IMG/VR virus record: IMGVR_UViG_3300020152_000007
Span: 1-46,011 of that record
Reading direction: 5' to 3' (one strand)
Length of the DNA stretch: 46,011 bases
Origin: a virus
Translations under genes and position numbers: made by a program
Notes under the pieces: generated by a model
What the model saw: only the letters and a program-made list of their open reading frames with translations
What the model was told of the DNA's origin: nothing
Database searches by the model: none
Shown: piece by piece, positions 1 to 45,785 of the stretch
Numbering within the stretch: the stretch's first letter is position 1
Layout: every line of letters begins with the position of its first letter

Positions 1-127
1 AGGTATCCAGCTGGTCACTCTAATAATTCAGGTTAAGGTGTAAATTTGGGCCGGGGAGGAAACTTCCCGGCTTTTCTCCGGCGGTTGGCGGTGGGAGTGT
101 GGCGCGTCGCGCAGGGGCAAAAAAAAA
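1..127. repeat. Terminal direct repeat, copy 1 (identical to 45885..46011)
   Basis: Bases 1..127 read identically at 45885..46011, including the final A9 run. This implies circular closure or terminal redundancy. Confidence 0.95.
50..77 (+). terminator. Rho-independent terminator (also present at 45934..45961)
   Basis: GCCGGGGA-ggaaac-TTCCCGGC stem-loop (8 bp, one G.T pair) followed by TTTTCT. Lies downstream of the plus-strand genes that end at the junction. Confidence 0.6.
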
Positions 128-143
128 CCGGGCCGAAGCCCGG
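119..143 (-). terminator. Rho-independent terminator of the 171..659 gene
   Basis: Minus strand reads CCGGGC-TTCG-GCCCGG followed by T9, 28 nt after the stop codon. Confidence 0.8.
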
Positions 144-170
144 TGGAGATTACGGGATGGAGGTCCCGAT

Positions 171-659
171 TTACAGCGCGATGTCGTCGATATCGCCTTC
201 GGCTGCCAGTTTCTCGAGGCGGGCCTGGGCCTTTTCTGCACGGATGACAGCGATGGTGGCCTTGACGCGTTCGTTGCTGCGCATGGTCTTGAGCTGTTCG
301 TCGGTTGCATCCTTGAGTGCGGCTTGAACTTCGGCCACAGGCAGGCCTTTGATGCGGGCCAGTGCATCGGCCAGCTCGGTGGTGCGTGGCTTGGAGTCGC
401 CTTCGCCACGTGCGGCACGCCACTCGCCATTCTTCAACTGGTTGAGGGTGTCGGTGAACAGACCCTGGGCAACGTCAACATCACCCTTGCTTGCCGAATA
501 AGCATCACCCAGTTTCTGGCTCATGCCGTGCAGGGCGAAGTGCAGTTGGATGTCGGGGGAGAAGTCTTCGAGGCGGACCAGCTGCGGCTCTTTGCCGGCG
601 AATTCAAACTCAACACCCTTCGATTCAAAATCCAGAACCTTGCTTGCTACTTTAGCCAT
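171..659 (-). CDS. Hypothetical protein, paralog A (homologous to the 45276..45785 product)
   Basis: 162-aa ORF with AAGGAG 8 nt upstream of the ATG, its own promoter and its own terminator. Aligns along its length with the 169-aa product of 45276..45785 (shared HG-QK-GD-Y, L+-G-W/F, DEQ, R+KA-I blocks). Confidence 0.85.
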   Translation of the reverse strand: MAKVASKVLDFESKGVEFEFAGKEPQLVRLEDFSPDIQLHFALHGMSQKLGDAYSASKGDVDVAQGLFTDTLNQLKNGEWRAARGEGDSKPRTTELADALARIKGLPVAEVQAALKDATDEQLKTMRSNERVKATIAVIRAEKAQARLEKLAAEGDIDDIAL

Positions 660-696
660 GTTTATTACTCCTTTTGTCGGTTGAAAGATTAAGCTT

Positions 697-717
697 TTGC
701 AATTCTTACATTTGCAA
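697..717. promoter_or_regulatory. Two TTGCAA palindromes (697..702 and 712..717) in the leader of paralog A; candidate operator
   Basis: ttTTGCAAtt and atTTGCAAat lie 15 bp apart, between the -10 element and the SD of the 171..659 gene. Confidence 0.35.
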
Positions 718-721
718 ATTC

Positions 722-750
722 ATATTATATGGCTCCGGTGAGGTTGTCAA
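722..750 (-). promoter_or_regulatory. Sigma70-like promoter for the 171..659 gene
   Basis: Minus strand reads TTGACA (750..745), a 15-17 nt spacer, then ATATAATAT (contains TATAAT/TAATAT). Confidence 0.6.
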
Positions 751-787
751 GCACAAAATGCAGGTAGGGCTGGAATGGCGGTCGGGG

Positions 788-1080
788 GGATAAATGGGCA
801 TATATGGGAAATTTATATCTCCCTAAGTGCGGTCCATAGTATAGTCCCCAACACCCGATTTTGGCTCAACCCCCACCCATTCCCACAATCGCACACTCCC
901 ACACTCACACTCACTCACTCAGTATTTAATTATTTTTTTTTTATAATAAGGGAGAGGAAGAACACGGGAGGGGATGGGAAAGAGATAGGGTGGGGCAATG
1001 GTCGAAAACGGGATTCGGGGGAGATACAATAAACGTTACTTAGGGAGATAGATGAATCCCATATATACCCCCATTTACCC
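788..1080. repeat. Large imperfect inverted repeat (arms about 788..921 and 950..1080) around an AT-rich core (922..949)
   Basis: The reverse complement of 1021..1080 (GGGTAAATGGGGGTATATATGGGATTCATCTATCTCCCTAAGT...) aligns with 788..830 (GGATAAATGGGCATATATGGGAAATTTATATCTCCCTAAGT...). Similarity continues inward. The left arm is C/A-rich and the right arm G/A-rich on the plus strand. Confidence 0.8.
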
Positions 1081-1102
1081 CAAACATCTCCCCCAAAACC
1101 TC

Positions 1103-1131
1103 TTGACAACTCCCACCAAACCCCGCACAAT
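1103..1131 (+). promoter_or_regulatory. Sigma70-like promoter for the first plus-strand gene
   Basis: TTGACA (1103..1108), 17-nt spacer, CACAAT (1126..1131). It mirrors the minus-strand TTGACAAC promoter across the inverted repeat. Confidence 0.5.
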
Positions 1132-1162
1132 TAACCATCCGTCAACCAACTGGAGACCCTCC

Positions 1163-1927
1163 ATGCCACACCCGACCAACAGCGCTACATACGAACAAAC
1201 CTTTAAACTCGTCGTTGAAGTCCTCGGCCGACGAGGACGTACTGAGGATATTGTGATTAAGCAACCCGACGAAAAGAAAGCGATTCGGTTTCGGCTTAGA
1301 TATTACAGCTTTTTGAAGGTACTGAAACGTGAGGCAGAAGAGATGTTTATCAAGGGCCGTAAAACCGGGTCCCCAGAACTGTGCGCGAAAGCAGAGGAAT
1401 TGCTTGAACAGTTAGTGCTGGTGCGTCGGTTTAAGGCAGTACTCGAAGGCAATACCGTTCTCTTTACTGACCGCGATGCGCAAGAAATTGACAACATTAA
1501 TAACCTGATGAGTGAGTTGATGAAAGACACTGCACATCTTTCGGCTGACATTATGACCAACACACAGGCAGCAAATAGTTTTGAAGCTAAACTCGAGGCG
1601 CAGGTAAAGGAAAGCCGAGAACAGCGCCTCGCCAACACGCCACCCCGCAATCCGCTTGATGACGTTCTCGACGAAACCCGCGATGCACCTGTCGGCATTT
1701 CCGCAAACACGCTGCTGGAGCGCACCGCTACCCGGCTCATCCACGGGGCACAAGCACAATTTACACTCCCTTTCGACACCCCTGACAGCGCAGCCGCCTT
1801 CCACCTGCAATGGACCACCTATTGCCTCGGTCGGCCCGACATCACCCCGCACCGCACTGACATCGACGGCAAGAACATCACCTTCACCCGCAACATCTTG
1901 GATGAATTTACAGGCCAGCAACCGTAA
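1163..1927 (+). CDS. Hypothetical early protein
   Basis: ORF-track frame 1052..1927. The internal ATG at 1163 has GGAG 7 nt upstream and lies downstream of the 1103 promoter, so the 1052 start was rejected. Confidence 0.7.
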   Translation: MPHPTNSATYEQTFKLVVEVLGRRGRTEDIVIKQPDEKKAIRFRLRYYSFLKVLKREAEEMFIKGRKTGSPELCAKAEELLEQLVLVRRFKAVLEGNTVLFTDRDAQEIDNINNLMSELMKDTAHLSADIMTNTQAANSFEAKLEAQVKESREQRLANTPPRNPLDDVLDETRDAPVGISANTLLERTATRLIHGAQAQFTLPFDTPDSAAAFHLQWTTYCLGRPDITPHRTDIDGKNITFTRNILDEFTGQQP

Positions 1928-1934
1928 ATAATGA

Positions 1935-1964
1935 TTGACAACTTGGACGGTCTTATTATATAAT
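1935..1964 (+). promoter_or_regulatory. Consensus sigma70 promoter
   Basis: TTGACA (1935..1940), 18-nt spacer, TATAAT (1959..1964). Confidence 0.7.
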
Positions 1965-1993
1965 GGGACGATGATTAAAATAATCATCACCCC
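1965..1993. promoter_or_regulatory. 29-bp imperfect palindrome, copy 1
   Basis: GGGACGATGATTAAAATAATCATCACCCC, immediately after the -10 hexamer. Confidence 0.85.
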
Positions 1994-2021
1994 ATCGACA
2001 ACCTTAGAAAGGAAACACTAA

Positions 2022-2189
2022 ATGCCTGAACTATACTCCCTCTTCCGTACCGAAAACGGACAGCTTATTCATATGCAAACCGGTCACCTGGAAGAACTTC
2101 AGGACCGCATGGATAACGAAGCTGAAGACTTAACCGGGGAAGATGCAATGTTAATTCTCCCCACCGTTGCCTTCGCGCAAAACCTGTAA
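2022..2189 (+). CDS. Small hypothetical protein (55 aa)
   Basis: Hand-translated MPELYSLFRTENGQLIHMQTGHLEELQDRMDNEAEDLTGEDAMLILPTVAFAQNL. AAAGGA lies upstream. First ORF after promoter/palindrome copy 1. Below the ORF-track size cutoff. Confidence 0.45.
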   Translation: MPELYSLFRTENGQLIHMQTGHLEELQDRMDNEAEDLTGEDAMLILPTVAFAQNL

Positions 2190-2241
2190 TCATACTGGGG
2201 GAAGTGCAACACGCATTTCCCCCTAAAGAGGGGACCCACAC

Positions 2242-2463
2242 ATGCCTACAAAAACCTCGCGACCGGCCCAACGCATCAGTGACGACGGGCTAAAAGCCTG
2301 GCTAACGCAAGTCCGGCAGAGCCTTTTAAATGCCTCAATCAGCCTTCCCCCGTACAACTCCCACGCCTTCCGCATTGACCGGCTGGACGAAGCCATCGCA
2401 AAGCTGCAGTGGCTAAAATCCCGCCTGCAAGCGGAACAAACCCTTGACCAGATGAAAGGCTAA
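2242..2463 (+). CDS. Hypothetical protein (73 aa)
   Basis: ORF track; purine-rich SD upstream; C-ending codon bias typical of this arm. Confidence 0.6.
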   Translation: MPTKTSRPAQRISDDGLKAWLTQVRQSLLNASISLPPYNSHAFRIDRLDEAIAKLQWLKSRLQAEQTLDQMKG

Positions 2464-2468
2464 ACGCG

Positions 2469-2798
2469 ATGCCAAACACCTCTACAAACTGGAACCTCGT
2501 CGACAAGAACTTCAACCGCATCTCGGTCGGGGATAAGCTCCCCGACTTCCGAGGCGACCTATGTACCGTTACCGGCCTCGGTCACCCACCACGCACACCT
2601 GAGAGTTCCGGTCGCATAGAACTCGACGGTAGCCTCTACTACCCCAGCATCGTTGACTGCATCTGGCTTACCGACGAGGCACTCTACGAAGCCCAGGTGA
2701 CCGCCCTCGAACACGCAGGCATCCCGCGCAGCGACGCGCAAGGCATAGTCGACGCGACAAAGCTTCAACAAACCCGCAGTACCCCCAACCACAACTAA
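2469..2798 (+). CDS. Hypothetical protein (109 aa)
   Basis: ORF track; tightly packed after the previous gene. Confidence 0.65.
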   Translation: MPNTSTNWNLVDKNFNRISVGDKLPDFRGDLCTVTGLGHPPRTPESSGRIELDGSLYYPSIVDCIWLTDEALYEAQVTALEHAGIPRSDAQGIVDATKLQQTRSTPNHN

Positions 2799-2812
2799 GG
2801 AGCAAGCGCAAC

Positions 2813-3097
2813 ATGGAAACCGCACTTATCATCGACAGCAACCGCATTTCAGTATTCCAACTTCCCGGCAACCAGTTGCCCGAGGTCATTATCCTCACAA
2901 CCGCCGCAGGGGACAGCGTAACCTACTCCGCCCTCGGCCTCTTTGACACCGGCAGCGAAACCACGCAGCCAGACGGCAACCCCCCGTCCGACCCGGAAAA
3001 CCCCGACGCGCCCCCCGCCGAGGAAAAGTCCGGGGGCGCTGGTGACCCCGCAACCGGGAACCAGGAAGAAACCAACGAAAAGCGCAGTCTGTTCTAA
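2813..3097 (+). CDS. Hypothetical protein (94 aa) with an acidic, Pro-rich C-terminus
   Basis: ORF track; AAGGAG upstream. Confidence 0.6.
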   Translation: METALIIDSNRISVFQLPGNQLPEVIILTTAAGDSVTYSALGLFDTGSETTQPDGNPPSDPENPDAPPAEEKSGGAGDPATGNQEETNEKRSLF

Positions 3098-3148
3098 CCC
3101 TGCCTCGAGCCAGTTCCCCACCCCTCGGGGAGCTGGTTCCGGGCAGGG
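3098..3148 (+). other. Extended GC-rich stem-loop directly after a stop codon
   Basis: CCCTGCC(3098..3104)/GGCAGGG(3142..3148) enclose CCAGTTCCCC(3110..3119)/GGGGAGCTGG(3127..3136). No U-tract follows. Confidence 0.5.
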
Positions 3149-3181
3149 AAGAACCCTGCACAACAAAGGAGACCCGACAAC

Positions 3182-3511
3182 ATGGATATAAAAGCTGAAA
3201 TTCTAGCCGCCGCAGCCGAGGCCGAACTCGCGCCCCAGTGCTACATCACCGGCTGCGCACTCTACCTCTCCACTCGCACGTGCTGCGCATGGGGCGACCT
3301 CTTCATCTTTGGCGATATGTACATCTTCAACGCCAGCACCTACAAAGAAGAGGCCATCCTATCCTACCACTCCCCCGAGACCCACCGCGAACAGCGCTGC
3401 CTCATCGTCCACGGCAACGACTACTTTGAGCGCCGAGGCGTCTTCGTCATCAACAAGCGGGACGCCGAGCTTAACGCCATCGCGAAAATGTACAAGGGGA
3501 TTGAAGAATGA
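3182..3511 (+). CDS. Hypothetical protein (109 aa)
   Basis: ORF track; AAGGAG upstream; ATGA overlap with the next gene. Confidence 0.65.
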   Translation: MDIKAEILAAAAEAELAPQCYITGCALYLSTRTCCAWGDLFIFGDMYIFNASTYKEEAILSYHSPETHREQRCLIVHGNDYFERRGVFVINKRDAELNAIAKMYKGIEE

Positions 3512-3996
3512 GCAACGGAACCCCTGAACAAAAAGCCGCCGCAAAGCTCGCGCTGGCTGAACTCTTCGGCGACCTGCTAACCCCGCCACCCAAGGGCAAA
3601 CCCGGGAGGCCCAAGAAAACCGCTTCCGGGGACGGCGAACCGAAGGTTTTCAAGCCTCGGGCCTTCCCCACCTCCCCACAAACCTCGCCCTTCTTCGAGG
3701 CGACTTCCCGCGAGTACTTCATCGTCGAGCAGCACTGCCTATCGTGCGGCAGCTTTACCCGCTACGCCGAAACCAAGATGCTCCGCTACAAGGCCGTCAA
3801 GCGGAAGGACGGGCTGGCAATAGAAATCCCTTGCTGCCTACCGGCCCCGCTCGACGTACCCAGCCTTGTCACATACCGGAGCGAGAGCACAGACTTCTGC
3901 GCGCACTGCGTAGAGATAACCTCCCGGCTCGACAGCAGCACCCTGTTCGAGCTTTCTAACCCCAACACTGCACTTCAACTAAAACTCTTTAATTAA
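3508..3996 (+). CDS. Putative DNA-binding protein with an AT-hook-like motif and a CxxC...CxxC zinc ribbon
   Basis: KGKPGRPKK (nt 3592..3618) resembles an AT-hook core. CLSCG and CAHC pairs are also present. Confidence 0.6.
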   Translation: MSNGTPEQKAAAKLALAELFGDLLTPPPKGKPGRPKKTASGDGEPKVFKPRAFPTSPQTSPFFEATSREYFIVEQHCLSCGSFTRYAETKMLRYKAVKRKDGLAIEIPCCLPAPLDVPSLVTYRSESTDFCAHCVEITSRLDSSTLFELSNPNTALQLKLFN

Positions 3997-4013
3997 GCGG
4001 AGGGAACCACCAA

Positions 4014-4346
4014 ATGAGCACACCAAACCAAACTGACAAAGACCGCGTCGAGGCGCTACTCGAAGAAGCGCGACAACGCGCCGAAGCGCAAAAGGCGCGG
4101 GGCGAAACACCTGACCCCATCCACCCGGACGAGCTTTTGCGCGCTGCCGCCGACGGAGAGCTTAAGCCCCTCTACACCGTACACGTATTTCCAGTGCCCG
4201 GTGCCGAGGGCCTCCTCGCTCCCGTCCTACACGTCACCGCAGACGGACGGCAGTTCTCCCGCGTTGACATCGCGGAACACCTCACCTCCCTCGCCATAGC
4301 CCTCGTAACGGGCGAGGGAGCAATCCTCAACGGAAAGGGACACTAA
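4014..4346 (+). CDS. Hypothetical protein (110 aa)
   Basis: ORF track; GGAGGG upstream. Confidence 0.65.
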   Translation: MSTPNQTDKDRVEALLEEARQRAEAQKARGETPDPIHPDELLRAAADGELKPLYTVHVFPVPGAEGLLAPVLHVTADGRQFSRVDIAEHLTSLAIALVTGEGAILNGKGH

Positions 4347-4347
4347 C

Positions 4348-4707
4348 ATGAAAAACACCCTGCTCGCTTGCCTGTTTAAGCGCATCTTTGGGAAGAAAAC
4401 GCCAGTGCTTACAAAGCCAGTCCTCCCGCCCGGCTACTACACCGTCAAGGCGTGGCACCCCGACGACTGTTACCACAGTTCCTCGCACTGCCGCCCCGGC
4501 ACCATCGTGTACCTTACGAAAGCCCTTGACCTCAGGGAGGACGGGACGGCTGTCGGATACCTGTTCATGTTCGACGAGGTAACGTGTATCTGGCGCTGGA
4601 CTTGCGTCTATCGCGCTTGGCTTCGCCCCCTGCGCGGGATGCGACTCAGCACCTTCACTGCCGCACATCCACAAGCGCCCACCTTCGAGGAGGTTCCACA
4701 TGTCTAG
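4348..4707 (+). CDS. Hypothetical protein (119 aa)
   Basis: ORF track; starts 1 nt after the previous stop. Confidence 0.6.
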   Translation: MKNTLLACLFKRIFGKKTPVLTKPVLPPGYYTVKAWHPDDCYHSSSHCRPGTIVYLTKALDLREDGTAVGYLFMFDEVTCIWRWTCVYRAWLRPLRGMRLSTFTAAHPQAPTFEEVPHV

Positions 4708-4993
4708 AGGCCGCACCGCTAACACCGAGAAATCTATCCGCTGGCGGATTGAGGTCAAGGAGCGGATTGCCGCGCAGGTCGAACTGCTCCTGCTCGACCC
4801 ACTTACCGGCGACATCGCTTACGGCGCCCGTTCCGCGCTCGTCAACCAGCTCCTCCGCGAGTGGCTCGACAAGCAGCGCCGGGCCAACCCCGTTATTGTG
4901 GAGGAAACCGAAGAGGACCGCCGCGAAGCTCGAGGCGACCGGGAACCCGAAATGCGCTTTCAGGCCGACCTCGACAAGAAGGACTTTGGCTAA
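4700..4993 (+). CDS. Putative ribbon-helix-helix (Arc/CopG-like) DNA-binding protein
   Basis: GAGGAGG 7 nt upstream. KSIRWRIEVKERIAAQVELLL...YGARSALVNQLLREWL fits a strand-helix-helix pattern. Confidence 0.55.
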   Translation: MSRGRTANTEKSIRWRIEVKERIAAQVELLLLDPLTGDIAYGARSALVNQLLREWLDKQRRANPVIVEETEEDRREARGDREPEMRFQADLDKKDFG

Positions 4994-5136
4994 TGTGGAT
5001 TCTCCTGTTCATCACGTTATCCGGGGAGTATGTCATCGACAGATTCCCCACGCAGGGGCAGTGCCTAGCCGAGGCCCGACTCTACAACCAAGGCAGTTTT
5101 CGGGATGAAATCTTTACATGTCGTAAGGCAAAATGA
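4993..5136 (+). CDS. Small protein with a hydrophobic N-terminus (47 aa)
   Basis: TAATG overlap with the previous gene. MWILLFITLSG... plus 2 Cys. Internal start within track ORF 4861..5136. Confidence 0.4.
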   Translation: MWILLFITLSGEYVIDRFPTQGQCLAEARLYNQGSFRDEIFTCRKAK

Positions 5137-5235
5137 AAACTTCACGTACAGCGGCACATAACTCGTGCTGTTGTGCGGGGGGCTTTCCCCAGCGACTGGC
5201 GGCGCTTACCGCCTAACTTTACGGAGAAAAAAGAA

Positions 5236-5877
5236 ATGACTAAGAAATGCGTTATCATAGCACTTATGGCACTGTTCACCCTACCAGTTTACGCGGGTAA
5301 CGACCGCGACGACTGCCCCGGAAATAGCTGTCACGGCGGTCAAGGTGGTCAGGGCGGTGATGGGGGTGCAGGCGGCGACGCTAATTCCCTCGGCATCGGG
5401 ATTGGTGTTGGCGGCTCAGCTAATGCCACCGGCGGCGACGCAACCGCTATTGGCCTGGGCGGCAAGGGCGGCGATGCCAGCGCCATCAGTGTAGGCGTGG
5501 GCGGTGAGGGTGGTAAAAGTTCCTCCGACGCCGATGCCAGCGCCAAGGCCGGGGCAAATGCCGGCTCTTCGAGTGGCGGTAATTCGCTCACCGTCAACGA
5601 GGGAGACTATGAGGCCCGTGCCATCCCGGTAGGCAGTTCTATCGCCGCCGGTGCTAACGGCACCTCGAAATGCCTGAAACATGCCAGCACCTCTGGTAAC
5701 CTGTTCTTTGTCTCGTTCGCACGCGCTTCCCACGAGCCTGACTACATGTGCTGGGCACAAGAACTGGGCGCTCCCGAGGTTGCAATACAGATGGCCTGCA
5801 ACGACTCCGGGTCGTTCCGTAAGGCTTACAACCAAATCGCCCGTCGGCACGGCAAGGAAGAGTGCCTGAGCGAGTAA
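5236..5877 (+). CDS. Secreted glycine-rich repeat protein
   Basis: The ATG at 5236 has GGAG 9 nt upstream. Signal-peptide-like MTKKCVIIALMALFTLPVYA. GG(D/S)A..(I/L)G.GVGG-type repeats. Cys-containing C-terminal domain. Confidence 0.7.
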   Translation: MTKKCVIIALMALFTLPVYAGNDRDDCPGNSCHGGQGGQGGDGGAGGDANSLGIGIGVGGSANATGGDATAIGLGGKGGDASAISVGVGGEGGKSSSDADASAKAGANAGSSSGGNSLTVNEGDYEARAIPVGSSIAAGANGTSKCLKHASTSGNLFFVSFARASHEPDYMCWAQELGAPEVAIQMACNDSGSFRKAYNQIARRHGKEECLSE

Positions 5878-6002
5878 CCGACCTCTCGCAAAGGGGCCGT
5901 TGCTAAACATGGAGAGAATCGCGACTCTGTGAAGTGTCTAGCCTGTAGTGCCTTCGGGCGCTATGGAGTAGGTACTTTCCCCCAACCGTTAAGGAGCTTT
6001 AA

Positions 6003-6233
6003 ATGAAAATACTCGCCACAATGCTTATCGCCGCCATCGCAATTCTGTTCTACCTGATGGTTAATCGGCCCGACCTGCAGCACGTCACCGACGCTTGCCT
6101 CAAGCAGTCTTATTTCGACATCTGCATGTTCAGGGAAGGCGCAACCCCCGAACTCTGTGAAGCCGCTGCAAAGTCAGCTTCCCTCCGCCCAAAGCACTCT
6201 GTAATGCCAACCTGCATTGAGGTGACCGAATGA
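6003..6233 (+). CDS. Membrane-anchored small Cys-containing protein (76 aa)
   Basis: AAGGAG 6 nt upstream; N-terminal TM segment ILATMLIAAIAILFYLMV; 4 Cys. Confidence 0.65.
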   Translation: MKILATMLIAAIAILFYLMVNRPDLQHVTDACLKQSYFDICMFREGATPELCEAAAKSASLRPKHSVMPTCIEVTE

Positions 6234-6394
6234 ACGAAGAAGACTTGCGCGCGGCCTTCGAGGCCAAACAGCTAATCCTCGGCGAAAGCCGGGAAGAACT
6301 CACCCGTACTCCCAGCGGCTACGAGCGTGAGGAAATTAATGCCGACTGGGTTTGGTTCAAGGAAGGAGTACGCTATGCAACAGAACGGAGATAA
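6230..6394 (+). CDS. Possible small ORF (54 aa)
   Basis: ATGA overlap with the previous stop. Hand-translated MNEEDLRAAFEAKQLILGESREELTRTPSGYEREEINADWVWFKEGVRYATERR. Overlaps the next gene by 20 nt. Confidence 0.3.
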   Translation: MNEEDLRAAFEAKQLILGESREELTRTPSGYEREEINADWVWFKEGVRYATERR

Positions 6395-7457
6395 GCCGGA
6401 AGAAACTCGGGTAGTGCCAGTAGAGCCGACAAACGATGAATTTGCCAAGAAAGTTATGGAGCACATTCCTGTACGCGAAAATACAAGGCTATTCAATCCA
6501 CCAACCCACGAGGTAGCCACCCCACAGCAGCAGGAGTTCGTGCAAACAGTACCCGACCACTGCGACCGTATCGTGTGGCGAGGGCACTATTACCACTTAC
6601 CGCTTGCAGCACAGCCACAAGAGGAGCTCGTGGAAGTATGCGCCGAAGCGTATCAGGTGGTCGGCTCCCTGCTTTCTGATGTTGGGGCGCTTGATACTGA
6701 CAAAGCCGAGAAGATACTGGACAATTTAGGTGAACAGCGCATGATTCATAAAGACGTACTCCCTTGGCCCTCGTTTGCGCAGCCGCAAGAGGAGCCGGAG
6801 GCCGAGCTTGGGAACGAAATGAGCCTCGACGATTTCAAAGAACTGCTTACCTCGTACGGAGGTGGCAGGTTTGTCGAGCTTCACTACCGTGGGCACTTAG
6901 CTTTTGGCATACTCGTCGCAGAGATGGCAGAGGGTGATAGTATGCGGCAGGTTGCTGCTGAGATTGTGTCGAAGTTAAACGCAGCCCCGCAGCAGCAAGA
7001 CACTGAGTCCTTACAACCGCAATGGAACAACCTTCCATCTGAGATAAAAGACTGGCATAAGCGTATTGAATCGCGGTTGCAGGGTGAGCCGGTGTTGTAT
7101 GCAAGAAAGAGTGAACTTGCGCAGTTGGAGTTCAAACACATCGAGAGCGAATACATCCTGACAGCGAGCACACGCCAAGACGAGGTGTATGACGCCCCCC
7201 TCTTCACCCAACCACTCACCGCTGACGCCATCTTTAATCAAGGGATAGAGGAAAGCGTGAATCGAGCAGCCGCCTTCGTCGCAAACAATGAGTGTGAGAT
7301 TGACTTGGCTGGACTTGCGCAAGAAATACGTAATGGAAAGCGCCCCACTGATATGGTGACGATAAGCAGGACAAAGTTGGAGGAAGCCTTCTCGGATGAT
7401 GGTGTAAATCTGACTAAGTTGGTAGAGGTTGTCTCCCGCGAACTGGAGGGGAAGTGA
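6375..7457 (+). CDS. Hypothetical protein (360 aa)
   Basis: Track ORF 6327..7457. The ATG at 6375 has AGGAG 7 nt upstream. Third codon positions are visibly more A/T-rich than in flanking genes. Confidence 0.7.
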   Translation: MQQNGDKPEETRVVPVEPTNDEFAKKVMEHIPVRENTRLFNPPTHEVATPQQQEFVQTVPDHCDRIVWRGHYYHLPLAAQPQEELVEVCAEAYQVVGSLLSDVGALDTDKAEKILDNLGEQRMIHKDVLPWPSFAQPQEEPEAELGNEMSLDDFKELLTSYGGGRFVELHYRGHLAFGILVAEMAEGDSMRQVAAEIVSKLNAAPQQQDTESLQPQWNNLPSEIKDWHKRIESRLQGEPVLYARKSELAQLEFKHIESEYILTASTRQDEVYDAPLFTQPLTADAIFNQGIEESVNRAAAFVANNECEIDLAGLAQEIRNGKRPTDMVTISRTKLEEAFSDDGVNLTKLVEVVSRELEGK

Positions 7458-7813
7458 TGAGCATGCATCGTAAGCCATTGACGGACTTGGAACGTGAAGG
7501 GCTAATAGCGCATGGGTTTGAGCGGGACATAGGAAAGCCAAGCATGCTCGCGGATGTATTTAGGCACGGCGTGGCATGGGCGCTCGCAGCGACAGAGAAG
7601 GATGCGGAGCTGTTAAAAGGCCTTCGTCGCCTATGCGGTTACGTGCAGGACGGAAGTGCGGAAACGGTATCAATCTATCAAGACGACGCTACGCGAGACT
7701 GGGGCGTACGAGTCGGGACAGCCTTTACAGGGCGCGACCGCAACTATCACGGGATTTCCTTCGAGGAAGCTCTTGAGGCCGCCTTCAAAAAGGAGCTCCC
7801 TCCCGATGCCTAA
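7454..7813 (+). CDS. Hypothetical protein (119 aa)
   Basis: ORF track; ATGA overlap with the previous gene. Confidence 0.6.
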   Translation: MMSMHRKPLTDLEREGLIAHGFERDIGKPSMLADVFRHGVAWALAATEKDAELLKGLRRLCGYVQDGSAETVSIYQDDATRDWGVRVGTAFTGRDRNYHGISFEEALEAAFKKELPPDA

Positions 7814-8180
7814 CATCCGCAACCGCAAGCGCTACCTCCCCATCGCGCAAGAACTCCGCAAGCGCCTTGAGGCCTACGGCATCAAGACAGAAATAAAAAC
7901 CATCGCCGCGTGGGGGAGCATTTACATTACCTGCGAGGACTCGCGGATGGGCCAAATCCGCATAGGTGACCACGACGAGCGCGACCGCTACGGCTACCGC
8001 TGGCAGGTGCGCACGGACCTTGAGGAGATTGCCATTGACACCTCAAAAGGTCACCGGCGCTTCTTCTACCCACCCTCGGAACTTGCCGCCATGGCCAAGC
8101 GCATGAAACAATACCACATCCGCATTCTGGAGAATGCTCAAAGGGAAGAAATATATGATAAACTCCAAGCCCAAGGGTAA
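7806..8180 (+). CDS. Hypothetical protein (124 aa)
   Basis: Internal ATG of track ORF 7656..8180, with AAGGAG about 9 nt upstream. Confidence 0.6.
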   Translation: MPNIRNRKRYLPIAQELRKRLEAYGIKTEIKTIAAWGSIYITCEDSRMGQIRIGDHDERDRYGYRWQVRTDLEEIAIDTSKGHRRFFYPPSELAAMAKRMKQYHIRILENAQREEIYDKLQAQG

Positions 8181-8424
8181 GCGGGGCTTCGCCTCGATGG
8201 ACCCCGAGAAGCAGCGACAGATTGCCAGCAAAGGTGGGAAGTCGGCACACGCGCTTGGGCTTGCCCACCGCTTCACCAGCGAAGAGGCTCGCGCCGCCGG
8301 CAAGAAGGGCGGGATGAGTTCCGGCTCGCAGCACCGATGGACCCCGGAGGAAGCGCAAGCGGCCGGGCGCAAGGGCGCACTTACCCGTAAAAGAAAACTC
8401 AACCAACGAAAGGACTTAAAATGA
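8155..8424 (+). CDS. KGG-repeat (YciG/general-stress-like) small basic protein
   Basis: RGFASMDPEKQRQIASKGGK, then AAGKKGG and AAGRKGA repeats. Start chosen at MINSKPKGK, so start confidence is lower. Confidence 0.6.
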   Translation: MINSKPKGKRGFASMDPEKQRQIASKGGKSAHALGLAHRFTSEEARAAGKKGGMSSGSQHRWTPEEAQAAGRKGALTRKRKLNQRKDLK

Positions 8425-8948
8425 TAATCCAGAAGCCAGTATACATGCAGCGTTATCCTGACGGCCTGTGGCGAGAGCTACCAGAAGGGGAGTTTCAAGC
8501 CGACAACCCCAACCATTCGCTCTTCTATGAGATGCAGTTTGCCGCTGACGACACCTCCGACCAACTCAATTCCTTCATCGAGTCATGGTATGAGTTCTTC
8601 CGCCAAATCCCCCGCACCATCCACCACCTTAACTTGCGCTGGTGGACCGACAGCAATGGCCGCGACATCCGGCGCAACCCTTACTGCTTCAGCAATAAGC
8701 TGGCGCTAATTCACAGCGAAATATCCGAGGCGCTTGAAGGCGACCGCAAGAACCTCTATGATACGCACCTTCCACAGTTCCCCATGCGTGACGTCGAACT
8801 CGCTGACGCCCTTATCCGTATCCTCGACCTCGCCGAAGCTTACAACATCGACATCGCCAAGGCGACGATTGAAAAGCTTAAATACAACCGACGTCGTGAG
8901 GACCATACGGCTGAGCACCGGGCAACTGCCAACGGAAAGAAGTACTAA
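8421..8948 (+). CDS. MazG-like nucleoside triphosphate pyrophosphohydrolase
   Basis: LIHSEISEALEG ... ELADALIRILDLAE ... KLKYNRRREDH pattern, typical of all-alpha MazG-type NTP-PPases. Confidence 0.65.
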   Translation: MIIQKPVYMQRYPDGLWRELPEGEFQADNPNHSLFYEMQFAADDTSDQLNSFIESWYEFFRQIPRTIHHLNLRWWTDSNGRDIRRNPYCFSNKLALIHSEISEALEGDRKNLYDTHLPQFPMRDVELADALIRILDLAEAYNIDIAKATIEKLKYNRRREDHTAEHRATANGKKY

Positions 8949-8949
8949 C

Positions 8950-9078
8950 GTGGACAAGGGTGCAATTGCGTTTATAAAATTCATAGTAGTTATGATGCTG
9001 CTGATGTCTATTCTCGGGCCGATTTTCGTACTCGCTATGCGCTGGGTAACTTCCTTCCCTGTAACCGGAGGTTGTTAA
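8950..9078 (+). CDS. Possible small membrane protein (42 aa, GTG start)
   Basis: VDKGAIAFIKFIVVMMLLMSILGPIFVLAMRW... fills an otherwise empty gap. Confidence 0.25.
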   Translation: MDKGAIAFIKFIVVMMLLMSILGPIFVLAMRWVTSFPVTGGC

Positions 9079-9079
9079 C

Positions 9080-9268
9080 ATGCTCAGCCTCGGCACACAA
9101 ATCAAGTCGCTTATGGGTTTGCTGGAACTCGATGACTTTACCTCATGGGAAACGGACTTTGTTTCCAGCGTAGCTCGGCAAACCCGCGAGGGGCAGGATA
9201 CAACTCGGCTGACCGAAAAGCAAATTGAGGTTATCGAGCGGCTGCATAAAAAACATTTTGGAGGATAA
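9080..9268 (+). CDS. Hypothetical protein (62 aa)
   Basis: ORF track; GGAGG 9 nt upstream. Confidence 0.6.
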   Translation: MLSLGTQIKSLMGLLELDDFTSWETDFVSSVARQTREGQDTTRLTEKQIEVIERLHKKHFGG

Positions 9269-9269
9269 T

Positions 9270-9647
9270 ATGAGCACACAACCTTTAACCTTGATGAACT
9301 GGAAGACCGACCCGGCCTTCGTGCAGTTTCTCCAGTTCGACTTCGACTTCAACTTCGCCTCCCCCGAGGCCAAGCGGCAGGTGATGACCCTGCTTCCCCT
9401 CGCCGTGGGCGACAACCGGATGCACGGAGCAATCGCCAATGCCGTGTTGAAAGAGGCACTTGACCTGTGGAACCGTCCGCGTGAACGGCACTTCTTCGTC
9501 CGCGAGAATATGCGCTGGCGGTACATCGGCATTGAGCGCTCCATGCATCTCATCCCTGTGAAAGCGCAGTATCGCGTTGGCCGACTCCGCCGCCGACTAT
9601 CCCCTGGCTCATTCTGCCAACAGCCAAGCCACGAAGTTATTGCTTGA
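9270..9647 (+). CDS. Hypothetical protein (125 aa)
   Basis: Internal ATG of track ORF 9225..9647, with GGAGG 6 nt upstream. Confidence 0.6.
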   Translation: MSTQPLTLMNWKTDPAFVQFLQFDFDFNFASPEAKRQVMTLLPLAVGDNRMHGAIANAVLKEALDLWNRPRERHFFVRENMRWRYIGIERSMHLIPVKAQYRVGRLRRRLSPGSFCQQPSHEVIA

Positions 9648-9672
9648 CAAACTGGATACGGGCGCGTAATAT
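9644..9672 (+). promoter_or_regulatory. Sigma70-like promoter
   Basis: TTGACA (9644..9649), 17-nt spacer, TAATAT (9667..9672). Confidence 0.65.
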
Positions 9673-9678
9673 TTTAAT

Positions 9679-9707
9679 GGGACGATGATTAAATTAATGA
9701 CCGTCCC
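9679..9707. promoter_or_regulatory. 29-bp imperfect palindrome, copy 2
   Basis: GGGACGATGATTAAATTAATGACCGTCCC, starting about 7 nt after the -10 (near the predicted transcription start). Confidence 0.85.
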
Positions 9708-9741
9708 AACTCTGAACCTCTACAACTTAAGGAGCTACACC

Positions 9742-10266
9742 ATGAAAGCATCACACATACTCAGCCTCATGCAAAACGACTACACGACCGTTCAGGTTGC
9801 TTACTCCGAGGGCGGCAAACTTTACACCTTCAAGGCACTGAAAAGTGACAACCTCGCGAAGGATGATTTTGTTGTCATCCCAACCAGTTACAACGACTGG
9901 GGCTACACCCTCGGCAAGGTCATCTCCGTCGACGAGGAGGCTGACATCGACACCTCCGTCGCCTACACCTACAAGTGGATTGTTGGCAAGGTCGACCTCG
10001 TCCGCTACGCAGGTATCCTGGAAGTGGAAAAACGCTTTGAGCGCCACATTCTTAATATGCAAAAAGCCAACACGCGCCGGCAGCTGGTACAGTCCGTCCT
10101 CGAAAGCTTTCCTGAGGGTTCAAAGGAACGCGCCGATTTCGAGCTGCTGCTGAACTCCGGCCAAAGTCTTGAACAAATCGAAAGGATGTTAAACAATGGA
10201 ACAAACCTCAACAACGACTCTAACGACGATGCCCCAGGCGCCGGTACTGGGGGTAGCGGAGCTTAA
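9742..10266 (+). CDS. Hypothetical protein (174 aa)
   Basis: Internal ATG of track ORF 9685..10266, with AAGGAG 7 nt upstream. The upstream extension would run through the palindrome. Confidence 0.7.
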   Translation: MKASHILSLMQNDYTTVQVAYSEGGKLYTFKALKSDNLAKDDFVVIPTSYNDWGYTLGKVISVDEEADIDTSVAYTYKWIVGKVDLVRYAGILEVEKRFERHILNMQKANTRRQLVQSVLESFPEGSKERADFELLLNSGQSLEQIERMLNNGTNLNNDSNDDAPGAGTGGSGA

Positions 10267-10477
10267 CGACCTCCGCCGCCGCGTACTCGCCGGCGAGCAA
10301 GTCTCCACCGAGGAACTCGCCGCCGGGATTAAGGCTATTCGCCAAGGCCGCGCCAGTGCAATGGCGGCTAAGGCGAAGGCCCCCGCCAAACGCAAGAAGA
10401 AACTCAGCGAAGAAGAAGCAGAAGCTGAGCTCGACAATCTATTAGGAGGTATTGGCCTTGGACAATCCGAAAAGTAA
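10196..10477 (+). CDS. Hypothetical protein with a Lys/Ala-rich basic segment (93 aa)
   Basis: ORF track. Overlaps the previous gene by 71 nt. An alternative ATG exists at 10229. Confidence 0.5.
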   Translation: MEQTSTTTLTTMPQAPVLGVAELNDLRRRVLAGEQVSTEELAAGIKAIRQGRASAMAAKAKAPAKRKKKLSEEEAEAELDNLLGGIGLGQSEK

Positions 10478-11420
10478 TCTTGAACTCGTTCTCGAGGGGG
10501 GCAAGGCCCCCTTCCCCGAGGTCATCGACAACACCTACCGCGAGGGCTTCACCCTCTGCCACCAAAAGCACTACTGGCAGGCCATCGTCCGCATAACCCC
10601 TGACGTGCCCAACATCCACCTTCATGCCGGGAAGAGTTTCGCCAAGGCTCTCGAAACTACCCGCCGGGAGTTTTATGAAAATGGAAAATCTTCCACCGAA
10701 GCAGTTGCCCTCGGCCATGCCGCCCTCATCCAAGCCTACGGCGACTTCGACGTTATCCACGGATACACTGACCACAACAAGTCCTGCGCCAATATGCTCC
10801 GAGCCTTCGAAGACTATTTCTTCGAGTATTCGCTTGACCATTCAAGCCTTGTACCGGTCACCACAGCAGACGGGAAGCGAGGTATCGAGTTTTCTTTTGC
10901 AATCCCCACTAACGTCTTGCATCCCACAACGGGCAATCCAATACTCTATGCGGGTCGATTCGATATGCTTGGGGAGGATGTGGACCTTCAGTGGGTCGTC
11001 GATGAGAAAACTTCCTCGCAGCTTGGCCAGTCTTGGAACAGTCAGTGGGACCTTAATTCCCAGTTTACGGGCTACTGTATGGCGGCAAGACAATACGGAT
11101 ACCCTGTGGCAGGTGCCATTATCCGTGGAGTTGGCCTTCTTAAGACGAAGATTTCTCATCAGCAAGCTGTCATCTATCGACCTGAATGGATGATTGAGCG
11201 CTGGTGGAACCAACTTCACCGCGACCTCAAAATGATGATTGCCCTTTGGGAAGCGGACGACGGCAAGGGCAGCGCCTACGACTTTGCCCTCGGCGGGGCC
11301 TGCACATCCTACGGCAACTGCACCTTCAAGAATATGTGCATGTCGAACACTCCCCATGACTGGGCGCGAGTTGGCTTCCGGGCGAACGAGTGGAGTCCGT
11401 TGGCCGGCTTCGACCACTAA
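10452..11420 (+). CDS. PD-(D/E)xK exonuclease, Cas4/RecB-like, with a C-terminal Cys cluster
   Basis: GRFDMLGED...VVDEKTSS...QFTGY motifs; Cys at LCHQ plus CTSYGNCTFKNMC; TTG start after AGGAGG. Confidence 0.6.
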   Translation: MALDNPKSNLELVLEGGKAPFPEVIDNTYREGFTLCHQKHYWQAIVRITPDVPNIHLHAGKSFAKALETTRREFYENGKSSTEAVALGHAALIQAYGDFDVIHGYTDHNKSCANMLRAFEDYFFEYSLDHSSLVPVTTADGKRGIEFSFAIPTNVLHPTTGNPILYAGRFDMLGEDVDLQWVVDEKTSSQLGQSWNSQWDLNSQFTGYCMAARQYGYPVAGAIIRGVGLLKTKISHQQAVIYRPEWMIERWWNQLHRDLKMMIALWEADDGKGSAYDFALGGACTSYGNCTFKNMCMSNTPHDWARVGFRANEWSPLAGFDH

Positions 11421-11424
11421 GCCA

Positions 11425-11781
11425 ATGTCGGGTCTTGTCAAAGTTGACGTGTTTTTCGGGGCCGAGTTTATCGGCTCCCTTACCCAATACCACTTCAACA
11501 CCAACAGCGACCGGCCGGCAATACAGAACGGCAGCGTTCTCGGCCTCTGCCCGTTTTGCGGGGAAATCTGGCTTCGGGCCGTCCACGCCGAGGGCCTGCC
11601 GTACTGGCGGACCGTCGAGCTACCTTGTTTAACCCATGCCCACCTGTGGGGGGACCATGCATTCAGGTGGGGCACTTTTGAGCACCTTATCGGGGACATT
11701 ACCGACGCCCCTCATGATGTGCTTTTACTCGAATTCCTCTGGTGGTGCAAGCGCCGGGGAAACAACCTTTTAGGAGATTAG
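11425..11781 (+). CDS. Hypothetical Cys/His-containing protein (118 aa)
   Basis: Internal ATG of track ORF 11239..11781, just after the previous stop; CPFCG...C..H.H. Confidence 0.55.
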   Translation: MSGLVKVDVFFGAEFIGSLTQYHFNTNSDRPAIQNGSVLGLCPFCGEIWLRAVHAEGLPYWRTVELPCLTHAHLWGDHAFRWGTFEHLIGDITDAPHDVLLLEFLWWCKRRGNNLLGD

Positions 11782-11784
11782 AAA

Positions 11785-12081: not shown

Positions 12082-12090
12082 AAAAGAGGC

Positions 12091-12119
12091 TTGACACCTG
12101 CATTTAATGGGGATATGAT
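12091..12119 (+). promoter_or_regulatory. Sigma70-like promoter overlapping palindrome copy 3
   Basis: TTGACA (12091..12096), 17-nt spacer, TATGAT (12114..12119). Confidence 0.6.
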
Positions 12120-12137
12120 TTTTTTAATCATCACCCC
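12109..12137. promoter_or_regulatory. 29-bp imperfect palindrome, copy 3
   Basis: GGGGATATGATTTTTTTAATCATCACCCC; contains the -10 hexamer of the 12091 promoter. Confidence 0.8.
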
Positions 12138-12173
12138 ATTACCAGCTACCACTAACCTCAGGAACCAGATACC

Positions 12174-12467: not shown

Positions 12468-12472
12468 AACCT

Positions 12473-19505: not shown

Positions 19506-19697
19506 ATGCTAAAGAAAAAAGAAATACCTCCCCGCCCTTGCGGTTATTGTGAAGTGGAGTTTATACCGGCCCGAGAGTGGCAACGATTCTGTTGCACTAA
19601 GTGTCGGAATAACTACCACGCGGAACTTCGAGAGAAAGAAATCCAAGCACTGCTCGATGAGCTAGCACAACTAAAAGGGCAGGGGACGAAGGTATGA
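19506..19697 (+). CDS. Small zinc-ribbon protein (63 aa)
   Basis: CGYC...CTKC pairs followed by a coiled-coil-like tail. ATGA-coupled to the next gene. Confidence 0.6.
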   Translation: MLKKKEIPPRPCGYCEVEFIPAREWQRFCCTKCRNNYHAELREKEIQALLDELAQLKGQGTKV

Positions 19698-20899
19698 GGA
19701 ATCACGAGAACTGGCTTAAAGCTTTTATCGAATACGCCAGCTTTGGCGAAGCCCCGCTAAAGATGCTCTTTTGGACCGGCGTTTCGACAGTGTGTGGGGC
19801 GCTGCGTCGTCGGGTTTGGCTGGATATGAAATACTTCCAGTGGGTACCGAATATGTACATTGTCATGGTGGCACCTCCCGGTATTGTCTCCAAGTCGACA
19901 ACTGCGAATGTGGGGATGAACCTCCTCCGCCGTGTCGATGGCATTGTCTTCGGGCCAGACGTTGTAACGTGGCAGGCGCTAGTCGAAAGCATGGCGAAGA
20001 GCACTGAACTTGTGCTCGACAAGACGACGGGAGAATACCTCCCGATGTCCTGCATCACCATCGCTTCTGACGAGTTCGGCAACTTTCTCAACCCCGACGA
20101 CCGGGAGATGGTGGATGTGCTTGTGAGTCTGTGGGATGGTAAGCGTGGCTCCTTCACCAAGACGACAAAGATGTCAGGCAATGACCTCATCGAGAATCCG
20201 TGGATTAACCTTATTGCCTGTACCACCCCCGCGTGGATAAGCGGCAATTTTCCCGAGTACATGATTGGGGGCGGTTTTACCTCCCGCTGTGTTTTCGTCT
20301 TTGCCGACTCGAAGCGGCAGGAAATCGCCTACCCTGACGAGAATGTCCCGCCAAATTTCCTGGCAATGCAGGGTTCGCTTATAGAGGACCTAAAGCAAAT
20401 CGCTGAGCTTTTGGGAGAAATGAAACTTACCGACGACGCCCGTGAGTGGGGCAGGGTGTGGTACACGAATCACTGGCAGAATCCCCCGACCGGACTCAAC
20501 CTCGAGCAGTTCGGCGGGTACCTCGCCCGGAAGCAAACTCTCATTCACAAACTTGCAATGGTCGTTTCAGCCGCCCAACGCAACACCCTCGAAATCACTG
20601 CCGCAGACCTCGAGTTCAGCGCCGAGAGCATCAGCGCCCTCGAGCAAGACATGCCGAAGGTATTCCTCCGCATCGGTCAGGACAAAATTACAAAAGGCAC
20701 TACCGACATTACAGCCTACGTCCAGGCTCACGGTCGGGTGTCCAAAAACACCCTCTTCAAACACTTCGTCCGCACACTTAGCTTCAACGATTTCGAGGCT
20801 TCGTTGCGCGGGGCTGTACAAGCGGGCTTCGTACATTACCAACAACAGGGGAACGAGCAGTATGTCGTTAAAGGGGGTCTAGGTGGCGTACAAACCTGA
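19694..20899 (+). CDS. DUF3987-like P-loop NTPase (putative replicative helicase/primase-associated ATPase)
   Basis: Deviant Walker A VAPPGIVSKST; Walker B ITIASDEFGNF; LIACTTP and GGGFTSRCVFVF blocks. Confidence 0.5.
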   Translation: MRNHENWLKAFIEYASFGEAPLKMLFWTGVSTVCGALRRRVWLDMKYFQWVPNMYIVMVAPPGIVSKSTTANVGMNLLRRVDGIVFGPDVVTWQALVESMAKSTELVLDKTTGEYLPMSCITIASDEFGNFLNPDDREMVDVLVSLWDGKRGSFTKTTKMSGNDLIENPWINLIACTTPAWISGNFPEYMIGGGFTSRCVFVFADSKRQEIAYPDENVPPNFLAMQGSLIEDLKQIAELLGEMKLTDDAREWGRVWYTNHWQNPPTGLNLEQFGGYLARKQTLIHKLAMVVSAAQRNTLEITAADLEFSAESISALEQDMPKVFLRIGQDKITKGTTDITAYVQAHGRVSKNTLFKHFVRTLSFNDFEASLRGAVQAGFVHYQQQGNEQYVVKGGLGGVQT

Positions 20900-45275: not shown

Positions 45276-45785
45276 ATGGCTATTAAAATAGCGAAGAAGA
45301 GTAAGACTGCGGACGGCGTAACCTTCCAGTTTGCGGATGTCAACAACACGATAGTGCATTGCCCATTGAAGGAACTGAGTGAGGCAATGGTTTTGCAGTT
45401 GGCAATACACGGACTGGCGCAGAAGGTGGGCGATTCGTACAGCGGGGCAGAATCGGTGGCCGAGGGCCTTGCGGCGGCATCGAGTGTTTGGGAAAACCTG
45501 AAACGAGGTGATTTCAATGCACGGGCACAAGGTACCGGCGGTATGGTGGTTGAGGCCTTGGCAAGGTTGAAGAGCCTGACGATGGACGAAGCGCAGGAGT
45601 TGTGGAATGCAGCCTCGGATGAACAGCGCGAAACCCTGAAGAAGAATCCAAGGGTTAAGGCGATGATTGACATTATCAAGGGCGAACGGGCCAGCAAGTT
45701 CGTTGATGGCACCGGCGATGACCTTGATGGAATGTTAAGCGGGCTGTGGGATTCAAAGGAAGTGAAGGGTAATAAGAAGAAATAA
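45276..45785 (+). CDS. Hypothetical protein, paralog B (homologous to the 171..659 product)
   Basis: AAGGAG 6 nt upstream; 169 aa; alignable with paralog A over most of its length. Confidence 0.85.
   Translation: MAIKIAKKSKTADGVTFQFADVNNTIVHCPLKELSEAMVLQLAIHGLAQKVGDSYSGAESVAEGLAAASSVWENLKRGDFNARAQGTGGMVVEALARLKSLTMDEAQELWNAASDEQRETLKKNPRVKAMIDIIKGERASKFVDGTGDDLDGMLSGLWDSKEVKGNKKK

Follow-up and report, generated by a model that had tools for sequence, protein, structure and literature searches.

What is the function of the long inverted repeat that fills the gap between two divergent genes in the phage genome of IMG/VR virus record IMGVR_UViG_3300020152_000007? The window, meaning the whole 46,011-nt stretch of DNA that was analysed, comprises one 45,884-bp genome unit and a 127-nt terminal overlap, which we infer to be an artefact of circular assembly because 127 equals a common assembler k-mer. 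To our knowledge, the replication origins of nearly all uncultured phages are unknown, and sequence composition alone predicts them poorly. Comparison with related phages shows that the repeat is one instance of a DNA element that occurs once per genome and precedes the early genes in a large, mostly uncultured phage group. Our answer, held with about even confidence, is that the element is most likely the phage origin of replication, at which protein binding, melting, and initiation would take place.

A dyad built around a poly-T core

A preliminary description of the locus had reported an imperfect palindrome in a 503-bp non-coding region between divergent genes. Both the gap and the palindrome are real, and the elements described lie where they had been placed (Table 1). 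When positions 741-935 are aligned, with gaps, to the reverse complement of 936-1131, the local score is 47; 300 dinucleotide-preserving shuffles score 17.5 ± 2.4 and never attain this value. The alignment pairs 787-879 with 988-1081, and the identity of the arms is 72% in these outer parts and 59% in the 60 nt beside the core, with 28 gap columns, so that calling the repeat ‘cruciform-capable’ overstated its symmetry. The pure A/T core had been placed at 922-949; position 922 is a G, and the A/T-only run therefore begins one nucleotide later and spans 27 bp. It is the longest A/T-only run in the genome, with the runner-up at 13 bp, and the T10 that it contains is the only T homopolymer of at least 8 in the genome. 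The strand asymmetry ascribed to the arms is also found, with a GC skew of -0.77 in the 60 nt to the left of the core and +0.71 in the 60 nt to the right, and the purine fraction after the core is 0.81.

The three blocks that had been singled out as the best shared by the arms, TAAATGGG, ATATATGGGA, and TATCTCCCTAAGT, have one copy in each arm and are absent from the rest of the 45,884-bp genome. Most of the mirrored blocks in the window are likewise single-copy, accompanied by two or three (A/T)ATGGG units ~10 bp apart and, in the left inner arm, by tandem repeats with periods of 6, 8, and 14. Measured from the core, blocks in the left and right arms lie at -132 and -128, -123 and -117, -107 and -101, and -52 and -46. 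In the nearest relative, L001 (IMG/VR; 162-aa protein 86% identical), the corresponding distances are -107 and -107, -68 and -68, and -50 and -51, and in L109 and L104 they agree within 1 bp. Blocks are thus equidistant from the core to 0-6 bp in the window, L001, L109, and L104, whereas the -35 boxes of the flanking promoters are offset by 17-19 bp between the two sides. The dyad is therefore built around, and centred on, the core and not the promoters.

The outer TTGACA elements noted in the preliminary description belong to an exact 9-bp inverted pair, GTTGTCAAG (743-751) and CTTGACAAC (1102-1110), and both copies form the -35 boxes of outward-facing promoters. The rightward promoter heads the 254-aa gene and the early operon. 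The leftward promoter serves only the 162-aa gene, which stands alone and is closed by a strong terminator, and the element therefore parts the early operon from one inverted gene and does not divide ‘early’ from ‘late’ modules. No promoter reading through the element was found in the promoter scan, and a weak promoter-like site inside it (1002-1030, 9/12 matches) is not conserved in L001. Inner promoters firing outward from the core (TACTAT/TACAAT blocks) were also considered and were dropped because they are not conserved in L001. Downstream, a perfect consensus sigma-70 promoter, TTGACA-18-TATAAT (12/12), lies at 1935-1964 (+) directly after the 254-aa gene; it is conserved in L001 (about 4780-4750, -), placing the 254-aa gene between its own promoter and the next strong one.

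Spread of the module and matching of its arms

A near-identity DNA search of positions 1-3000 against GenBank phages gave no match. In L001 the layout is the same and the arm sequences differ: TATCTCCCTAAGT, found in both arms of the window, corresponds to TATCCCCCCGAT in both arms of L001, and CCCG(A/T)TTT is replaced by CCCGAAAA. The module is present in 8/8 distinct relatives with at least 63% protein identity, with symmetry z scores of 8.7-20.6 and A/T runs of 13-27 bp, mostly with T9-T10. When the arms of 11 genomes were compared, left and right arms from the same genome scored 33-66 and arms from different genomes 12-31, and in 11/11 genomes the best match of the left arm was the right arm of the same genome. 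With one exception, orthologous arms scored at most 37. The inverted-repeat architecture described for the window is therefore shared by its close relatives, with arms that match within each genome. In each genome the left arm is most similar to the right arm of that genome, and orthologous arms have drifted apart; the two arms therefore evolve in concert. The longest identical block between arms is 13 bp, and since such tracts are too short for efficient gene conversion, that process is an unlikely cause of the matching and selection for matched sites would be the simpler one.

An initial survey, confined to the DNA immediately upstream of the 162-aa gene, gave false negatives for the dyad in ~55 relatives. 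It was superseded by a whole-locus scan of every A/T run of at least 12 containing a homopolymer of at least 8, with z ≥7 taken as significant. By this measure, the flanking symmetry is significant in 25/29 scorable homopolymer-containing A/T runs. Across relatives the T-run varies from T8 to T28, and core lengths over all module instances range from 10 to 30 bp. Four complete genomes have one module each: the window, Microcystis phage Mel-JY34, MW202489, and Vibrio phage VS-ABTNL-3 (Table 1), with Mel-JY34 and VS-ABTNL-3 being cultured phages. In MW202489 (L194), the annotated hypothetical coding sequence UOF77867.1 (38502-38783) overlaps the module and is probably a spurious call, and gene callers have also extended open reading frames into the module in L100, L103, and L108. 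No poly-T dyad module was found in Pseudomonas phage PaP2 (L196), where dense short repeats run across the start of the record (about 43,600 to 200), including CAAGGTA ~5 times and ATAGGG(G)A ~5 times.

When 28 modules were oriented by their T-run, the mean GC skew was -0.37 in the 80 nt before the core and +0.20 in the 80 nt after it, and this polarity, from C-rich through the T-run to G-rich, holds for 25/28 modules (after > before; Wilcoxon p = 5e-7). Some relatives carry arm units as iteron-like tandem repeats whose period is close to a helical turn: 10 bp in L100, 11 in L022, 12 in L010, and 13 in L014. AGGAGG is present in three copies in each arm of L010, CCCCCTGT in two or three copies in L014, and ATTTCTACTC in two copies in L100, and the units in L022 are 11 bp long. 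A member of the 254-aa family lies directly downstream of the module in 13 loci, some of them distant, as well as in L101, L108, and L109.

The promoters are less uniform. A TTGAC box is found downstream of the core in 20/28 modules, at a distance of 124-190 nt in 17 of these. In the leftward promoter TGTCAAGC is invariant in 7/8 aligned genomes, with L108 differing at the last base, and among the 28 modules the mirror-image left promoter is confined to the window clade and L010, L014, and L022. In Mel-JY34, L082, and L025, the order is a terminator or co-oriented gene, the dyad, a TTGACA promoter, and the first early gene, with no left promoter. The two mirror-image promoters of the preliminary description are thus present in the window, but many relatives have only the downstream early promoter. 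Because the left promoter is missing in these relatives, the pair does not belong to the conserved element and is a lineage-specific addition.

A further 11 A/T runs, mostly long, lie within 120 nt of a locus end, which is mostly a contig end. Those near contig ends are mainly T15-T28, and short T9-T10 runs were assembled through, so that the ends probably reflect assembly failure at homopolymers. The T-run itself is hypervariable (T8 to T28), and contigs end at or within ~100 nt of long runs in L015, L023, L031, L035, L036, L059, L085, L087, L090, and L049. A physical end of the DNA, or tract lengths that differ within a population, may also account for ends at long T-runs.

Table 1 Features of the dyad element and its surroundings in the window, and module cores in other complete genomes.
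Feature	Position	Strand	Description
Non-coding gap	660-1162		503 bp, between the 162-aa gene (minus) and the 254-aa gene (plus)
Leftward sigma-70-like promoter	750..722	-	TTGACA-17-TAATAT; -35 at 750..745, -10 at 727..722; 10/12 matches (promoter scan)
Left arm, outer well-matched part	787..879		Mirror of 988-1081
Left-arm blocks	791-798; 800-809; 816-828; 854-862; 871-878		TAAATGGG; ATATATGGGA; TATCTCCCTAAGT; CCCGATTTT; CCCCACCC
Left inner arm	880..922		C/A-rich, nearly G-free; short tandem CACACTC-type repeats at 881-921
Core	923..949		27 bp of only A/T, T10 at 933-942; candidate DNA-unwinding element; symmetry z 16
Right inner arm	950..987		G/A-rich, several GGG runs
Right arm, outer part	988..1081		Mirror image of 787-879
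Right-arm blocks	988-995; 1038-1050; 1057-1066; 1070-1077		GGGTGGGG; ACTTAGGGAGATA; TCCCATATAT; CCCATTTA
Rightward sigma-70-like early promoter	1103..1131	+	TTGACA-17-CACAAT; 10/12 matches (promoter scan)
162-aa gene	171..659	-	Open reading frame; leftward from the element, terminator at 144..127
254-aa gene, first early gene	1163..1927	+	Fast-evolving; candidate arm-binding factor
DUF3987 protein (PHROGs label ‘DNA primase’)	19694..20899	+	Pfam DUF3987, E = 2e-17; second candidate arm-recognition factor
Core, Microcystis phage Mel-JY34	44186-44205		Symmetry z 10.4
Core, MW202489	38508-38517		Symmetry z 21
Core, Vibrio phage VS-ABTNL-3	40718-40737		Symmetry z 10.2

A candidate replication origin and its rivals

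We favour an origin of replication because the element is a unique, single-copy dyad with an easily melted centre and mirrored, repeat-bearing, co-evolving arms, and because a strong outward promoter adjoins the dyad in a phage that has its own polymerase and MCM-like helicase. The variation of the T-run from 8 to 28 nt leaves the helical phase between the arms unconstrained, as expected if the centre melts. The origin reading offered in the preliminary description is favoured by the uniqueness of the element in the genome, by its A/T run, by its mirrored and concerted arms, and by its occurrence once per complete genome across a wide phage group; the paired promoters, the cruciform, and the GC skew drop out. 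In the mechanism that we propose, a sequence-specific protein encoded by the phage would bind the lineage-specific repeats of both arms in opposite orientations, and the poly-T/A-T core between the arms would melt. According to the twin-domain model, negative supercoiling forms behind departing RNA polymerases, and polymerase leaving the early promoter could in this way assist melting of the core, with the mirror-image leftward promoter adding to the effect in the window clade. A helicase would then be loaded on each side of the bubble. The arms might be bound by the DUF3987 helicase, through its variable C-terminal winged-helix region, or by the fast-evolving 254-aa protein. A tentative extension of this proposal is that phages of 40-47 kb from a large and mainly uncultured group share an undescribed type of origin, with a poly-T core of free length and an arm code that would co-evolve either with the C terminus of DUF3987, self-loading as two opposed rings, or with a 254-aa initiator of novel fold.

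The plus-strand genes at 1163-20899 form the early and replication arm of the genome, with products that include a PD-(D/E)XK exonuclease, a Sak4-like ATPase, a ParB-N/methyltransferase fusion, ThyX, a family A DNA polymerase, and the DUF3987 protein (Pfam, PHROGs). When ~40 proteins, comprising most early-arm genes and the large terminase, were compared with Pfam and PHROGs, no known initiator, DnaB-type helicase, integrase, or repressor was recognised, and most early genes received no assignment. The DUF3987 family consists of MCM-related superfamily 6 replicative helicases with a C-terminal winged helix (PMC4889955). Over 77 relatives, its conservation is 57-91% in residues 1-200 and only 16-39% in residues 321-401, and 26/30 differences between the window and L001 fall in residues 201-401. 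The 254-aa protein shares 50% identity with its L001 orthologue, where the 162-aa protein shares 86% and the large terminase 92%. In its AlphaFold model (predicted local distance difference test score, pLDDT, 84.9), a 55-residue helix and a disordered linker connect two alpha/beta domains, and the model has no match among PDB or annotated viral structures; tblastn searches of plasmids and GenBank phages with the protein also found no match. The model of the 162-aa protein (pLDDT 86.5) similarly has no PDB or annotated viral fold match, and both proteins may have undescribed folds.

Several observations weigh against an origin at this site. The cumulative G-C curve peaks at 1054 and is lowest at 44,303, and the segment from 44.3 kb to 1.05 kb is its only sustained rise (G-rich). 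An extremum does fall in the region, as the check proposed in the preliminary description asked, but the switch at 1054 is from plus to minus, which is the polarity of a terminus in bacteria, and its partner lies 2.6 kb off and not opposite, leaving a usual bidirectional origin unsupported. No skew switch was found at the opposite side of the circle or at the convergence of the arms near 21 kb, and positive skew to the left and negative skew to the right of the element are common to close relatives. We regard GC skew as carrying no information on whether the element is an origin. Along ~43 kb the plus strand is C-rich regardless of which strand is coding, and it is AT skew that follows the direction of transcription. 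DnaA boxes (TTATCCACA, ≤1 mismatch) are absent from 660-1162, which holds 0 of 16 genome-wide matches, and the cluster of such boxes beside an unwinding element that marks a DnaA-dependent origin is not seen. Across the genome, DnaA-box-like 9-mers are in excess, with 16 present where 6.8 ± 2.4 would be expected and fewer than 16 in every shuffle.

The gap that separates the polymerase gene from the helicase gene holds a second cluster of repeats (19402-19490), with four copies of AACGCAT(T), and this cluster could be the true or an alternative origin, or an operator of middle genes. Three copies are in tandem with an 11-bp period (19402-19433), the fourth is at 19483-19490, and the gap is AT-rich; the motif is largely conserved in the L001 genome (L113, about 1205-1300) and hence is not lineage-specific like the arm motifs. 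The arms of the window hold mainly single-copy blocks and not clear tandem iterons. The 254-aa protein has no recognisable DNA-binding fold, and its similarity among relatives does not significantly track that of the arms (rho = 0.34, p = 0.08). The candidacy of DUF3987 is weakened because the protein is 93% identical between the window and L001 even though their arm motifs differ. Finally, the fairly constant distance from core to early promoter suits a role in transcription equally well.

Such a role, as an early-promoter control region, is the main rival, though a less likely one. The arms would then be arrays of sites for a transcription factor, of the host or specific to the phage, that turns the early promoter on or off and, in the window clade, the divergent promoter of the 162-aa gene as well, with the A/T core as a bend, spacer, or UP-like element. 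The right arm does fill the space directly upstream of the sigma-70-like early promoter, usually 124-190 nt from the core, the first downstream gene is from a conserved, fast-evolving family and could encode an autoregulator, and both flanking promoters of the window clade share the extended -35 box CTTGACAAC. However, relative to the predicted transcription starts the blocks fall at about -61 to -113 and not over the core promoters, and they are registered on the core and not on the -35 boxes, unlike operator arrays of the phi29 p4 type, in which sites are in register with and overlap or adjoin the core promoters. The left arm persists in relatives that lack a left promoter, no other promoter of the genome carries the arm motifs, and changes in T-run length alter both the spacing and the phase of the arms. 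A regulatory switch, which the preliminary description had offered beside an origin, may still be what the region provides. A role of the C-rich, G-poor tracts in Rho utilisation or insulation was rejected, since it fails to explain either the lineage-specific mirrored motifs or conservation where both promoters point outward.

We consider it improbable that the element is a packaging or terminus site (pac, cos, or a terminal-repeat junction) or another cis site for DNA processing or entry. The early promoter follows it directly, the small and large terminase genes are ~1.5-2.5 kb away, and the left terminus of many phages whose ends are defined is just upstream of the first early promoter. 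Pac sites, such as P1 pac, also typically have symmetric sets of repeats on the two sides of a central site, and the 11 A/T runs near locus ends could be counted in the same direction. These end-near runs are, however, mainly the long ones, as assembly failure predicts, the assembly of the window passes straight through the element and has its 127-nt overlap elsewhere, and complete contigs of relatives are cut at unrelated places. An attP site would call for an encoded integrase and for arm-type sites around a core in common with the host, and no integrase was recognised among the ~40 proteins scanned; relatives were found as free contigs of ~45 kb.

A structure acting by its shape, whether a duplex cruciform or a long hairpin of single-stranded DNA or RNA, is very improbable. 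The single strand folds with -62.4 kcal/mol, compared with -43.9 ± 4.2 kcal/mol for shuffles (z = -4.4), but so would any inverted repeat, and a bias of arm-to-arm transitions towards G·T-compatible pairs on the minus strand (111 vs 45) can be explained by the difference in composition between the arms. Over 11 genomes, the arms are ~60-84% identical, with 506 gap columns and 258 transversions vs 156 transitions, far from the near-perfect palindromes of herpes simplex virus (HSV) oriL or N15 telRL. Because the arms are imperfect and gapped, bases beside the core pair no better than more distant ones, and the core, of 13-30 nt, is no palindrome, a cruciform or structured RNA seems unlikely. No promoter reads through the element, an Rfam 15 scan of the whole window gave no match at the gathering score, and a tRNA scan found none. 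It is hardly credible that the dyad is a functionless relic of an inverted duplication, left when the 162-aa gene was turned around relative to the early operon and carried a copy of the promoter region with it. An inversion is implied by the divergent layout of the window clade, since in Mel-JY34, MW202489, and several metagenomic relatives the early genes and the 162-aa gene point the same way, but the dyad is present in relatives without the inversion, and arms that stay matched within a genome while orthologous arms diverge to background are the opposite of neutral decay.

Around the element, the minus-strand genes at 45166-21109 form the packaging and structural arm, whose structural operon has a separate start at 45166. 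The 162-aa protein is identical to an NCBI entry, ‘hypothetical protein [Methylocaldum sp.]’, and the host is therefore probably a methanotroph, provided that the Methylocaldum contig was binned correctly. A 169-aa paralogue (~36-39% identical) is encoded at 45276..45785 (+), convergent with the 162-aa gene, and back-to-back terminator-like hairpins at 54-68 (+) and 144-127 (-) part the two genes; relatives show the same convergent pairing with a 152-156-aa gene. A 199-aa minus-strand open reading frame at 45254-45853 was rejected as spurious, the true gene there being on the plus strand.

The element is a landmark that can be tested in a widespread group of phages, whose members come from methanotroph-, cyanobacterium-, and Vibrio-associated samples, and it is easily recognised by its single copy per genome, its T-run in an A/T run with mirrored flanks, and its co-evolving arms. 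As an origin, it would provide a bacterial-virus model for the loading of an MCM-like helicase at a dyad, matched origin-initiator pairs for studies of specificity, and a compact part for building replicons in hosts that are hard to engineer, such as methanotrophs. As a control region, it would define a key early regulatory node of these phages.

Comparison with known origins

The arrangement proposed here recalls several unrelated systems. In archaeal oriC, inverted origin recognition box (ORB) elements surround an A/T-rich unwinding element where MCM is loaded, and in the oriS and oriL origins of herpes simplex virus and the core origin of simian virus 40 (SV40), opposed initiator sites flank an A/T-rich centre. 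These origins share with the design proposed for the dyad the opposite polarity of the sites and a helicase of MCM type or of the AAA+ class, and those of herpes simplex virus and SV40 also lie between divergent promoters. The hosts and proteins are different, the palindromes are shorter or nearly perfect, and there is no homology, so the likeness is an analogy of design only. Origins of iteron plasmids and of the lambda type likewise have repeats at helical-turn spacing beside an AT-rich unwinding region, near the gene of a fast-evolving specific binder with an adjoining promoter. Their iterons usually lie on one side only, with DnaA boxes nearby, whereas the arrays here are mirrored and have no DnaA box.

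Among phages, Lactococcus ceduoviruses (c2 type) have their origins in the gap that separates divergent early and late modules, and these origins belong to unrelated sequence types (PMC7150918). The dyad similarly occupies a non-coding gap between divergent transcription units beside the first early promoter and varies between lineages, as the c2 types do, which have no mutual sequence similarity. In c2, however, the origin lies between two co-directional early promoters and works through the non-coding PE1 transcript (PMC7150918). Both promoters of the window point away from the dyad and no promoter into it was found, and a poly-T-centred dyad is not described for c2 in that study.

Staphylococcus aureus pathogenicity islands (SaPIs) offer a documented precedent for the layout. 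Their origins have an AT-rich centre with iterons on both sides in opposite directions, and the element-specific repeats of each are matched to its own self-loading Rep helicase (PMC9371898). The central meltable region has its counterpart in the 27-bp A/T-only run with T10, and at least two opposed repeats per side are clear in L010, L014, L100, and L022, the blocks of the window being mostly single-copy. The phage also encodes a member of an AAA+ helicase family that has been described as having a C-terminal winged helix. In contrast to the SaPI origin, which is immediately downstream of rep, the dyad is 18.6 kb from the helicase gene and adjoins the gene of the unrelated 254-aa protein, and SaPI units are 5-6 nt long in 6-12 copies, while the arms here are 90-130 bp of mixed blocks. 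Binding and melting have been demonstrated for SaPIs and are here predicted from sequence. No earlier description of the element was found in the literature on Mel-JY34, Methylocaldum phages, and similar elements. The design principle is already known from these systems; what is new is a poly-T-centred dyad, 300-370 bp across, with lineage-specific co-evolving arms, that occurs once per genome.

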